Below are positions 168-2,054 of a stretch of DNA of 27,354 bases, piece after piece. The position numbers and the translations under genes are program-made. The notes under the pieces were generated by a model that saw only the letters and a program-made list of their open reading frames with translations, searched no databases and was not told the origin of the DNA. The stretch comes from a virus (taxonomy: Duplodnaviria > Heunggongvirae > Uroviricota > Caudoviricetes): IMG/VR virus record IMGVR_UViG_2703719365_000004, positions 1-27,354 of that record; one strand, 5' to 3'. How positions within the stretch are numbered: position 1 is the first letter of the stretch; every line of letters begins with the position of its first letter.

Positions 168-380
168 ATGCAGCACTGGTCTACAAAATTTTTTGCATTT
201 CAGAAAGTAATGACGCCCGCGAGTGTGCAGCTCCGGGCGCCGTGGCGTGTCGTGACTGTGGAGAAACTAACGCATGAACAGTTTAACAACACACTACCGT
301 CGCTCGCAACTGATTGCACTTCCTGTACCGGGTGGAAAAGCGAAGGTGGAGTATTGCTATGCAGTGAATGTACCAGGTGA
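168..380 (+). CDS. Hypothetical protein with C-terminal CxxC-x(n)-CxxC zinc-ribbon-like motif; possibly the 3' remnant of a gene cut by the IS
   Basis: ORF-track 70-aa ORF ending [21 protein letters not shown]. The same frame is open back to the IS junction at about 122 with no stop. The ATG at 168 has a poorly spaced SD (AGGAG only 1-2 nt upstream). Confidence 0.3.
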
Positions 381-452
381 CAGGGAAATTGTAACCCACA
401 GCTTTGCAGAGTGGGCTGTGGGTGATTTCAACAGGCAAAAGGAGACAGTCCT

Positions 453-632
453 TTGCGACAAGTTAACCGCTGGTTCAAAGATCACTACGGAGTGCCCGTC
501 AGAGTCATTCGTTGGGAACCGGAAACACAACGGGTTATCTACCTCCGCGAAGGCTATGAGCATGAGTGCTTCAGCCCGCTCGAACAGTTTCGTCGTAAAT
601 TCAGGGAAATAGAGGTCGGTCATGAGCACTAA
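453..632 (+). CDS. Small hypothetical protein (about 59 aa, TTG start), not in the ORF track
   Basis: Frame-0 translation [65 protein letters not shown] at about 437-442 sits 8 nt before the TTG. Codon choice looks host-like and the sequence is globular-looking, unlike the Ser-rich tail of the overlapping frame-1 ORF 274..612. Confidence 0.3.
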
Positions 633-1563
633 ATTAACCGGCTATGTATGGGATGGTTGCGCTGCGTCAGGCATGAAGTTATCCAGCGTGGCAATTATGG
701 CCCGCCTGGCTGATTTCAGTAATGACGAAGGTGTGTGCTGGCCATCAATTGAAACCATTGCCCGCCAGATTGGCGCGGGGATGAGCACCGTCAGAACGGC
801 TATCGCACGGCTGGAAGCAGAAGGCTGGTTAACGCGTAAGGCGCGTCGCCAGGGTAACCGCAATGCGTCGAATGTTTATCAGCTTAACGTTGCGAAGCTT
901 CAGGCAGCGGCATTTTCTCAACTGTCAGATTCTGACCCGTCAAAATCTGACGCATCAAAATCTGACCCGTCAAAATTTGATGCGTCGAAATCTGGCAAAA
1001 AAGCGGGTTTTCACCCGTCAGAATCTGGCGGGGATCCGTCAGTAAAATCAAAACATGATCCGTCAGATAAAAAACCTTCTCGTCCGGACGCTTCGCAACC
1101 GGACACGCAGACGGATGAACAGGATTTTTTAACTCGCCATCCTGATGCGGTTGTATTCAGCCCTAAAAAGCGCCAGTGGGGGACGCAGGATGATTTGACC
1201 TGTGCACAGTGGCTCTGGAAAAAAATCATCGCCCTGTACGAGCATGCCGCCGAATGTGACGGCGAGGTGGTTCGTCCCAAAGAACCGAACTGGACAGCCT
1301 GGGCAAACGAAATTCGCCTGATGTGTGTGCAGGATGGTCGTACTCATAAACAAATCTGCGAGATGTACAGCCGCGTCAGTCGCGATCCGTTCTGGTGCCG
1401 TAACGTGCTCAGCCCGTCGAAGCTGCGGGAAAAATGGGATGAGCTTTCCCTGCGCTTATCGCCGTCCGTCAGCACGTACACCGAAAAACGCGAGGACCCG
1501 TACTTCAAAGCCAGTTACGACAACGTGGACTACAGCCAGATCCCGGCAGGATTCAGGGGGTGA
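622..1563 (+). CDS. Phage replication initiation protein (N-terminal winged-helix/HTH origin-binding domain, repeat-encoded linker, C-terminal domain)
   Basis: 313-aa ORF. N-terminus (IARQIGAGMSTVRTAIARLEAEGWL) looks like an HTH_36-type replication-initiator domain. Sits at the expected O-gene position and contains internal iterons. Confidence 0.85.
   Translation: MSTKLTGYVWDGCAASGMKLSSVAIMARLADFSNDEGVCWPSIETIARQIGAGMSTVRTAIARLEAEGWLTRKARRQGNRNASNVYQLNVAKLQAAAFSQLSDSDPSKSDASKSDPSKFDASKSGKKAGFHPSESGGDPSVKSKHDPSDKKPSRPDASQPDTQTDEQDFLTRHPDAVVFSPKKRQWGTQDDLTCAQWLWKKIIALYEHAAECDGEVVRPKEPNWTAWANEIRLMCVQDGRTHKQICEMYSRVSRDPFWCRNVLSPSKLREKWDELSLRLSPSVSTYTEKREDPYFKASYDNVDYSQIPAGFRG
925..1075 (+). repeat. 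Iteron array (putative origin of replication) embedded in the replication gene
   Basis: Tandem approximately 15-bp units TCTGACCCGTCAAAA / TCTGACGCATCAAAA / TCTGACCCGTCAAAA / TTTGATGCGTCGAAA, then more CCGTCAG-containing copies and A-rich tracts. They encode the repetitive SDPSKSDASKSDPSKFDASKS linker. Layout parallels lambda ori inside gene O. Confidence 0.6.
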
Positions 1564-1565
1564 GC

Positions 1566-2054
1566 ATGAGTCTTTTGAATGACGTTCAGAAATTCATTGA
1601 AGCCCATCCGGGCTGTACTTCCGGAGACATTGCGGATGCTTTTGCAGGTTACTCACGGCAGCGCGTTCTGCAGTCTGCAAGCAAGTTACGTCAGAGTGGG
1701 CGTGTGGCTCACCGTTGTGAAGGGGATACACGCAGACATTTCCCGCGCCTGACTGAGAGAGCGCAGGAGCCGGAACCACAACCAGTTCGTGAAACCAGAC
1801 CTGTGCGCAATTTCTATGTCGGCACTAACGATCCCCGGGTGATTTTGTGCCTGACCCGCCAGGCTGAAGAACTGGAGTCCAGGGGCTTATACCGTCGTGC
1901 TGCAACGGTGTGGATGGCGGCATTCCGTGAAAGCCACTCCCAGCCAGAACGAAACAATTTTCTGGCGCGTCGTGAGCGGTGCTTACGGAAAAGCAGCAAG
2001 CGCGCTGTATCGGGTGAAGAGTGGTATCTGTCAGGGAATTACGTGGGGGCTTAA
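1566..2054 (+). CDS. PerC/ANR-family-like transcriptional regulator (putative)
   Basis: ORF track 1560..2054; ATG at 1566 is preceded by AGGGGG. C-terminal segment AEELESRGLYRRAATVWMAAF...RRERCLRKS resembles the PerC-family motif as I recall it. Family assignment is from memory only. Confidence 0.5.
   Translation: MSLLNDVQKFIEAHPGCTSGDIADAFAGYSRQRVLQSASKLRQSGRVAHRCEGDTRRHFPRLTERAQEPEPQPVRETRPVRNFYVGTNDPRVILCLTRQAEELESRGLYRRAATVWMAAFRESHSQPERNNFLARRERCLRKSSKRAVSGEEWYLSGNYVGA

Follow-up and report, generated by a model that had tools for sequence, protein, structure and literature searches.

Introduction

The replication origin of bacteriophage lambda lies in the middle of gene O, between the parts that encode the N- and C-terminal domains of the initiator, and the same arrangement is found in the Stx phages 933W and P27 and in phages 21, 434 and phi80. 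The C-terminal domain of lambda O recruits P-DnaB. The lambda iterons bind O, and the two iterons nearest to the AT-rich tract, together with the tract itself, suffice for unwinding (PMC7466680). Lambda, P22 and phage L each possess distinct iterons inside the initiator coding region (PMC8022706, PMC7466680). We describe here an element at positions 916-1104 of a 27,354-nucleotide stretch of DNA from a virus of the Caudoviricetes (IMG/VR record IMGVR_UViG_2703719365_000004, positions 1 to 27,354; hereafter 'the window', to which all coordinates refer unless stated otherwise). The element sits inside an O-like initiator gene, in the part that encodes the disordered linker of the protein, and sequence comparison leads us to regard it as probably the replication origin of a lambdoid prophage of the SfII/SfIV type.

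Two further groups of replicons offer useful comparisons. Gene 18 of P22 and of phage L encodes an initiator that is distantly O-like, and the iterons of these phages, which differ from those of lambda, also fall within the coding region. In phage L they comprise six imprecise 11-bp repeats (TGTCCAACGGA), and the origin was proposed from sequence alone (PMC8022706). These initiators are paired with a DnaB-type helicase (gene 12) and their repeats are unrelated to those described below, the likeness being drawn from the published description only. Iteron plasmids such as pSC101, R6K and P1 (oriR) resemble the present element in combining a winged-helix initiator with repeated sites beside an A+T-rich unwinding region, and P1 oriR is, moreover, dependent on Dam methylation and has GATC sites in the unwinding region. 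They differ from it in that their iterons lie outside the rep gene and, as a rule, are direct repeats of ~17-22 bp that lack symmetry and bind monomers. In addition, their iterons are accompanied by DnaA boxes, whereas none is found near the element here, the sole match to TTWTNCACA in 27 kb being at 7242.

Results

An O-like initiator with a different N-terminal domain

The 313-residue initiator has a full-length match to phrog_391 ('replication initiation O-like'; E 4e-135). Against lambda O, BLASTP aligns residues 70-277 at 31% identity (E 7e-26). Over residues 166-278, tblastn (E ~1e-17) gives identities of 39% with the O proteins of lambda, phage 21 and 933W and of 35% with phi80 gp15. 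Judged by these alignments, the protein is a true relative of lambda O. Its N-terminal domain is of another kind: Pfam places an HTH_36 winged helix at residues 23-70, with GntR and DnaD_N-like winged-helix matches as well, while the same search gives no match in this domain to Phage_rep_O, the family of the lambda O N-domain, and an hhalign comparison of the N-domain profile with lambda O residues 1-115 returns a probability of 0.05%. In the AlphaFold model this domain has the order helix-helix-helix-helix-strand-strand-helix (block-mean predicted local distance difference test score, pLDDT, of ~65-88). The best Foldseek matches to it are winged helices of the MarR/ArsR type, all at E 5e-3 or weaker, and searches of solved structures by sequence or fold recovered only such generic winged helices, none at E <=0.001, with the C-domain being uninformative. 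Overall, residues 1-101 and 166-283 are modelled as folded and residues 102-161 as disordered (pLDDT below 50). The repeats, which an initial annotation of this DNA described as encoding a low-complexity linker, occupy codons 101-136 of 313 and encode SDSDPSKSDASKSDPSKFDASKSGKK.... The gene and the features within it are as follows (DNA-level features are given without a strand).

622..1563, plus strand: O-like replication initiator gene, 313 residues, with N-terminal winged helix, disordered linker and lambda-O-type C-domain
622..924, plus strand: coding region of the N-terminal winged-helix domain, residues 1-101, the presumed iteron-binding module
916..1104: whole DNA-constrained element and proposed origin, codons 99-161, as delimited by synonymous entropy
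924..996: five abutting palindromic iterons of 13 bp, one every 15 bp, forming the proximal array
924-936: iteron 1, GTCAGATTCTGAC, a perfect palindrome
939-951: iteron 2, GTCAAAATCTGAC
954-966: iteron 3, ATCAAAATCTGAC
969-981: iteron 4, GTCAAAATTTGAT
984-996: iteron 5, GTCGAAATCTGGC
997..1016: spacer AAAAAAGCGGGTTTTCACCC, with an A6 tract at 997-1002 and a T4 tract at 1008-1011
1017..1029: distal iteron GTCAGAATCTGGC, the best conserved site, 33 bp past the last array unit
1033..1071: GATC-containing repeats GATCCGTCAGTAAAA (1033-1047) and GATCCGTCAGATAAA (1057-1071), each with an iteron left half-site
1041..1080: A-rich tract of low duplex stability, candidate unwinding region, aligning with the lambda AT-rich tract
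1076..1104: G+C-rich right border with the direct repeat CTTCTCGTCCGGAC / CTTCGCAACCGGAC
1081-1090: perfect palindrome CGTCCGGACG within the right border
1117..1470, plus strand: coding region of the lambda-O-type C-domain, residues 166-283, from tblastn and BLASTP and folded in the AlphaFold model

A palindromic iteron array followed by an A-rich tract

Repeats of ~15 bp had been noted in the middle of the gene. Tandem Repeats Finder recovers the same unit, reporting 4.3 copies at 931-994 with a period of 15 and the consensus TCTGACCCGTCAAAA, and also a 30-bp super-period with 88% matches. A repeat search finds six in-register copies across 910-1032, and the later CCGTCAG copies that had been remarked upon are present at 1033-1047 and 1057-1071. 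Re-phased, the unit becomes a 13-bp palindrome, GTCARAWTCTGRC or (G)TCARAWTCTGR(C), which occurs at six sites and of which the repeat as first described is a circular permutation. The distal site is a perfect palindrome, CCAGAATCTGG, in many relatives, and its 33-bp distance from the last array unit recurs among them, apparent 48-bp cases holding a degenerate extra unit. In the spacer, the TTT codon is invariant in 71/71 relatives and the AAA/AAT codons are conserved. Clustering of these sites is unique within the window: the 11-mer core with at most one mismatch has 15 strand-matches, against 3.4 +/- 1.9 in shuffled sequence (0/100 shuffles reach 15), and 11 of the 15 fall within 925-1028, with no zero-mismatch site anywhere else in the window. 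There are no further iteron sites elsewhere in 10 kb of the SfII early region.

Beyond the distal iteron are two GATCCGTCAG repeats, which continue as (T/A)(A/T)AAA and are 24 bp apart in the A-rich tract, placing GATC at 1033-1036 and 1057-1060 inside the candidate unwinding tract. Two to three GATC sites are present in this zone in 69/78 relatives, with the 24-bp spacing in 63 cases, and the Asp codon of the two repeats is GAT in 77/78 and 69/69 relatives. Nowhere in the gene is synonymous entropy lower than in this zone (0.09-0.17; see below). The A-rich tract that the initial annotation described is real in that duplex stability in the gene reaches its minimum there at window lengths of 20, 30 and 40 bp, the 40-mer from 1041 being the least stable in the gene (top 0.1%) and within the top 1.2% of the whole window, but its composition is only moderately biased, at 69% A+T (53% A on the top strand) across 1040-1075 as compared with 77% A+T in lambda. 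Further on, the region 1076-1110 has 34% A+T, synonymous entropy rises from 0.21 to 0.47 as constraint fades, and homology with relatives that bear other C-domains stops at about codon 161, the right end of the element. The extent originally given for the repeats and A-rich stretch, 925-1075, was correct in placing them mid-gene but slightly too narrow for the constrained element, which spans ~916-1104.

Two minor features of this region may be recorded. A small hairpin, CGGGTGAAAACCCG, followed by a T-run lies on the minus strand at 1004-1017, between the array and the distal iteron; it is weakly terminator-like and coincides with the conserved A6/T4 spacer. The GATC pair is kept in nearly all relatives despite changed flanking bases, and diverged members have three.

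Signs of selection on the DNA rather than on the peptide

We aligned by codon 78 distinct genes of this family, made up of the one in the window, four from phages and 73 from genome loci. They come from Enterobacterales including Escherichia, Citrobacter, Klebsiella, Yersinia, Pantoea, Rahnella, Proteus, Providencia and others. In this alignment we measured normalised synonymous entropy within the majority amino acid of each column. The adjacent N-domain of the same 78 sequences served as an internal control.

Codons 2-97, N-domain: normalised synonymous entropy 0.81, amino-acid entropy 0.70
Codons 99-161, linker: normalised synonymous entropy 0.26, amino-acid entropy 1.29
Codons 164-182, after the linker: normalised synonymous entropy 0.74, amino-acid entropy 1.23

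Synonymous entropy differs between the N-domain and the linker with a Mann-Whitney p of 4e-21, a value that overstates independence because the sequences are phylogenetically related. Where two linkers share an amino acid they use the identical codon in 83% of cases, as against 41% in the N-domain, and individual linker codons are frozen (Ser TCA 72/72, Lys AAA 66/66, Val GTA 75/76, Asp GAT 77/78, Phe TTT 71/71). The strongest constraint is on the distal iteron and the tract after it. To avoid circularity, the repeats were also defined on the protein level, as S-x-S-[DEGN] (n = 255). In these motifs TCA encodes the first Ser in 93% of cases and TCT the second in 85%, as against 17% and 9% of the Ser codons in the remainder of the same genes. 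Every Lys codon (130/130) is AAA, and the central residue switches between K, E, D and N, which in DNA terms is RAW. A different kind of evidence comes from phiP27 and a Citrobacter relative (L005 and L074), in which the distal-site DNA, TTTTCACCCGTCAGAATCTG, is unchanged but is read in another frame to give the peptide VFTRQNLTP instead of GFHPSESGG, with the frame being restored afterwards. Given that amino acids drift while codons are frozen, and that the distal repeat is kept in another frame, comparison of these genes indicates that selection is acting on the DNA of 916-1104 and that the peptide is free to vary. The constrained codons (99-161) coincide with the AlphaFold-disordered residues 102-161, and this is a further reason to think that the peptide can vary where the DNA is conserved.

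The array follows the N-domain across the family

The initiator gene is present at >=80% of its length in 1576/5426 complete E. coli genomes (~29%). Nearly all of ~77 relatives possess an array of 4-10 palindromes at 15-bp spacing plus the distal one, starting ~300 nt into the gene, and among genes with an identical N-domain the unit count ranges from 4 to 7 in 15-bp steps. The N-domain and its array are found together with three types of C-domain: a lambda-O-like one in the present protein and in Klebsiella phage 1, a second in phiNP and YeP3, and a third in phiP27, whose initiator gene is followed by DnaC plus a helicase. Arrays also persist in loci whose initiator gene lacks DUF4222 or PerC neighbours. 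In diverged members TCAGA..TCTGA becomes CCAGA..TCTGG or TCAA-N3-TTGA while the core stays similar, and a second E. coli initiator type (52-59% identical) has TCAA-N3-TTGA units with a 15-bp period and the same GATCCGTCAG pair. Among 80 viral contigs with an identical N-domain (L086-L165, with the gene at 1501), 72 have the pattern of the window and the others have one fewer or one to two more units; in one of these contigs a 1-nt shift truncates the initiator open reading frame (ORF) to 145 residues.

The second initiator type is found at 1501-2448 of locus L172, a relative with another C-domain, and at 1675-2634 of L171, after ydaS/ydaT-like genes and before an IstB/DnaC-like ATPase. As a variant of this kind follows ydaS/ydaT in Rac-like prophages, oriJ of the Rac prophage was considered as possible experimental support; it was rejected, the K-12 YdaU protein being a DUF1376 protein of another family. 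In a search of a plasmid collection for a natural minimal replicon, the matches were mostly prophages in very large or mis-assigned records. One stop-interrupted copy of the second type is present on pZ1322PEC0161-2, a 16-kb circular record of lambdoid early and lysis genes only, which may be a lambda-dv-like plasmid or an assembly artefact; with its disrupted initiator, this record is only suggestive as support for replication.

Comparison with lambda and with a sister group of initiators

The annotated lambda iterons correspond to O codons 117-145 and are followed by the AT-rich tract; the iterons described here correspond to codons 101-136, the same place in the O/O alignment, in which the lambda AT-rich tract falls on the A-rich tract of the window. 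The two systems share direct repeats that are dyad-symmetric about a centre rich in A (lambda TCCCTCAAAACGAGGGA; here GTCAAAATCTGAC), a downstream A-rich, purine-skewed tract that gives way to a G+C-rich segment, a homologous C-domain, and a gene position after cro/cII-like genes in the early-right operon (PMC7466680). They differ in the family of the N-domain and in the geometry of the array, with four 18-19-bp sites at 20-24 bp in lambda and six 13-bp sites, five of them abutting at 15 bp, here. Furthermore, the lambda tract is devoid of GATC, whereas a GATC pair is conserved here, and the lambda initiator gene is followed by P, in place of which we find a PerC/YfdN-like gene. The initial annotation had called this a lambda-type arrangement. 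That description holds for the O homology, iteron position, dyad symmetry, A-rich tract, DNA-level selection and linkage to the N-domain, and fails for the N-domain family and the missing P gene. Every prediction of the lambda-type reading that could be tested at the level of sequence is borne out.

More distant relatives of the N-domain (35-45% identical) are found in a sister group of HTH_36 O-like initiators, comprising the 'replication protein O' of the Stx2a_F403/Min27 type, Klebsiella RothC, Aggregatibacter S1249 and Vibrio D67. Here too palindromic repeats begin right after the N-domain, from ~265 nt into the gene, but they are spaced at 21-24 bp and differ from phage to phage (GGGCAGGAGCTGCCC, TGCCATCTGATGGCA, GTGACAAAATGTCAC, GTGCAGGAGATTCAC, GTGAAAATTTTGCAC, GTAGGCCCAGAAAGCAC and others). 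By contrast, the element that follows them is constant and contains GAACCAGTCA repeats where the window has GATCCGTCAG. An exact 17-mer of this post-iteron element occurs in >120 viral contigs with 77 distinct upstream contexts. A P-like loader follows the initiator in two of four sister-group phages. Across the sister-group loci (L167-L170 and L175-L254, for example L175, L231, L247 and L188) the iterons are always followed by CCAGAACCAGTCACTCTTTTGAACCAGTCAATGAACC, which looks like a constant post-iteron origin element and the positional analogue of the GATCCGTCAG repeats of the window (1012-1071).

Genomic context

The first 6 kb of the window are the early-right operon of a temperate enterobacterial phage. 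This early-right DNA is 98% identical to that of the Shigella phages SfII and SfIV and several E. coli phages, and the initiator gene is 100% identical to a prophage gene of E. coli strain 7784. The early genes of SfII run in the order cI, cro, a cII-like gene, a small ORF, an 'O protein family' gene, a PerC-family gene, dam, a gene with a LexA-like DNA-binding domain, rusA, KilA-N, a hypothetical gene and Q. The segment 2051-6008 of the window encodes Dam, a repressor with a LexA-like DNA-binding domain, RusA, KilA-N, an HNH-like protein and Q. For SfIV, Dam is reported to be missing (PMC3851460). Neither the window nor the SfII annotation includes a helicase loader (P- or DnaC-type) or a helicase among the early-operon genes beside the initiator. 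A scan of 600-1600 gave no promoter-like site, and no origin feature is annotated in the SfII GenBank stretch around the initiator gene or in the other records examined. The genes adjoining the initiator gene that are relevant here are the following.

453-632, plus strand: DUF4222 ORF, 59 residues (Pfam E 9e-19), with an 11-nt overlap with the initiator start
1560-2054, plus strand: PerC/YfdN-family gene, in the place of lambda P
2051-2707: Dam methylase, two genes downstream of the initiator

A DUF4222 homologue abuts the initiator gene in 69/84 family loci scanned, and DUF4222 is matched in 70/89 loci overall, one of them ~1 kb off. On this evidence of synteny the DUF4222 protein is a conserved partner of the initiator gene, even though arrays persist without it. 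The DUF4222 ORF overlaps in another frame with a 112-residue ORF at 274-612 (plus strand; phrog_1170), and it is the latter that is annotated in SfII. We also noted that the heptamer CCGTCAR occurs 27 times in the window against 7.7 +/- 2.7 expected (for example at 2202, 5895, 11446, 13834 ... 26006). Copies beyond the initiator gene are almost all on the minus strand, i.e. CTGACGG on the coding strand, and the excess across the window is probably a codon-usage effect.

Discussion

A possible mechanism for initiation

The repeats, their dyad symmetry, their unique clustering, purifying selection at the DNA level on precisely this segment, the positional match to lambda ori and the strict linkage to the N-domain are established here. 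Together they make it likely that 916-1104 is the origin from which prophages of the SfII/SfIV type replicate. In the mechanism that we favour, dimers of the N-domain would bind the six palindromic GTCARAWTCTGRC sites, five of them head to tail every 15 bp and the sixth 33 bp further on, beyond the A-tract/T-tract spacer. The resulting nucleoprotein complex, or 'O-some', would strain and open the adjacent A-rich tract (1041-1080), which would itself supply two further half-sites within the GATCCGTCAG repeats. The lambda-O-type C-domain would then bring in the host replicative helicase, probably by acting on host DnaB-DnaC directly, because the phage encodes no P-type loader. We infer rather than observe that the N-domain is the binder, that it binds as a dimer, that the A-rich tract melts and that replication starts here.

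Several considerations weigh against this interpretation. We found neither experimental evidence of binding or origin activity nor an origin description in the literature for this phage group; for SfII, SfIV and SfV the literature searched contains no origin description, the SfV genome paper and the replication-module review of Weigel & Seitz lying outside its reach, and the SfIV genome paper mentions just a 'replication module'. The lack of an annotated origin feature in the SfII GenBank stretch points the same way, as do the modest 69% A+T of the A-rich tract and the shared ancestry of the aligned sequences. The iteron sequence varies little within the family, and covariation between N-domain and site is weakly demonstrated. 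The N-domain has no detectable sequence similarity to that of lambda O, and the phage encodes no helicase loader despite having a C-domain of the kind that in lambda binds P. Finally, a centre spacing of 15 bp (~1.4 helical turns) would put neighbouring sites on near-opposite faces of the helix, unlike the spacing of about two turns in lambda, and the complex cannot therefore be a simple copy of the lambda O-some.

A more elaborate version of this reading, which we offer tentatively and consider rather unlikely, is that the origin is P-independent, methylation-gated and otherwise of the lambda type. A solo initiator would recruit host DnaB-DnaC, and the GATC half-iterons would bring firing under the control of Dam and SeqA, an idea suggested by the fact that the unwinding tract is built from two nearly invariant GATC half-iterons 24 bp apart. 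Origins of the HTH_36 initiators would in addition be bipartite: fast-evolving iterons may set specificity, and the constant repeat (GATCCGTCAG / GAACCAGTCA) may be a common unwinding or helicase-entry element.

Alternative explanations

Constraint at the DNA level does not by itself specify a function, and the array might instead be a set of operator-like sites by which the initiator, or some other phage or host protein, controls early-right transcription or its own translation, or else a conserved 'linker' sequence favouring homologous exchange of N- and C-terminal modules among phages. The switch between C-domain types at the right end of the element (about codon 161) fits with module exchange, and the DUF4222 gene that so often abuts the initiator could encode a partner for an element of this sort. 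We nevertheless judge a non-origin role unlikely. The position of the element relative to the homologous C-domain matches that of the proven lambda origin, palindromic repeats with the gene's least stable DNA just after them have the anatomy of an origin, and arrays are retained where DUF4222 or PerC genes are missing. A recombination linker requires neither dyad symmetry nor a fixed 15-bp register, and 600-1600 holds no promoter-like site. Moreover, the phage must have an origin, and no other candidate was seen across the window or within 10 kb of SfII early-region DNA.

Two other explanations dispense with a cis-acting DNA element altogether, and we consider both very improbable. According to one, the repeats are merely a low-complexity Ser/Asp/Lys/Pro linker that was expanded by replication slippage. 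The predicted disorder of the peptide, the in-frame 15-bp steps in copy number among near-identical genes, which are typical of slippage, and the single reading frame shared by nearly all units are all in keeping with this idea. Frozen synonymous sites beside variable amino acids are, however, the reverse of what protein-level selection would produce; charge-reversing K/E/D changes are tolerated at the central codon, the DNA of the distal unit is kept in another frame in genes of the phiP27 type, the strongest constraint falls in the non-repetitive A-rich/GATC part, and the units are palindromic, which the peptide does not require. According to the other explanation, the constraint comes from a folded structure of the early-right RNA, or from a second gene that overlaps this one in a different frame. 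The segment 910-1110 does fold strongly (-67.5 kcal/mol; z = -5.65 versus shuffles), but this is because the palindrome array itself amounts to a long imperfect hairpin, and pairing of the most constrained part (1024-1074) is only weak in the predicted fold and absent from the centroid. Variation in unit number from 4 to 10 would shift the register of any long-range pairing, and the sole Rfam match, to a eukaryotic miRNA family, is far below threshold (30.7 vs 97 bits) and arises because the array is hairpin-like. Alternative-frame ORFs do lie over the repeats at 863-1045 (plus strand) and 884-1051 (minus strand), but none of the alternative frames stays open throughout the zone in every relative (best 29/78); with these frames closed in most relatives, an overlapping gene was rejected.

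Implications

Recognition of a replication origin at 916-1104 would be a useful annotation of a known, lambda-like arrangement that leaves the understanding of origins unchanged and would not surprise a specialist. It would nonetheless add to the RefSeq label of the initiator, which is just 'helix-turn-helix domain-containing protein', for a gene that is also present in the serotype-converting phages SfII and SfIV. Placing the origin would provide a starting point for building lambda-dv-like replicons and for predicting whether prophages that share a host are incompatible in replication or titrate one another. The element is also a clean natural example of dual coding, in which the pattern at synonymous sites is by itself enough to map a cis-acting element with a precision of a few codons. 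Finally, its placement helps in judging which cryptic prophages still replicate. Two E. coli chromosomal loci (L056 and L083, with the gene at 1501) contain e14-type fusions, 455-residue ORFs that have lost the array and retain only the first 79 residues of the N-domain (99% identity). They look like the product of a deletion fusion and resemble YmfN of e14, which we take to be a defective prophage that would have lost its origin.

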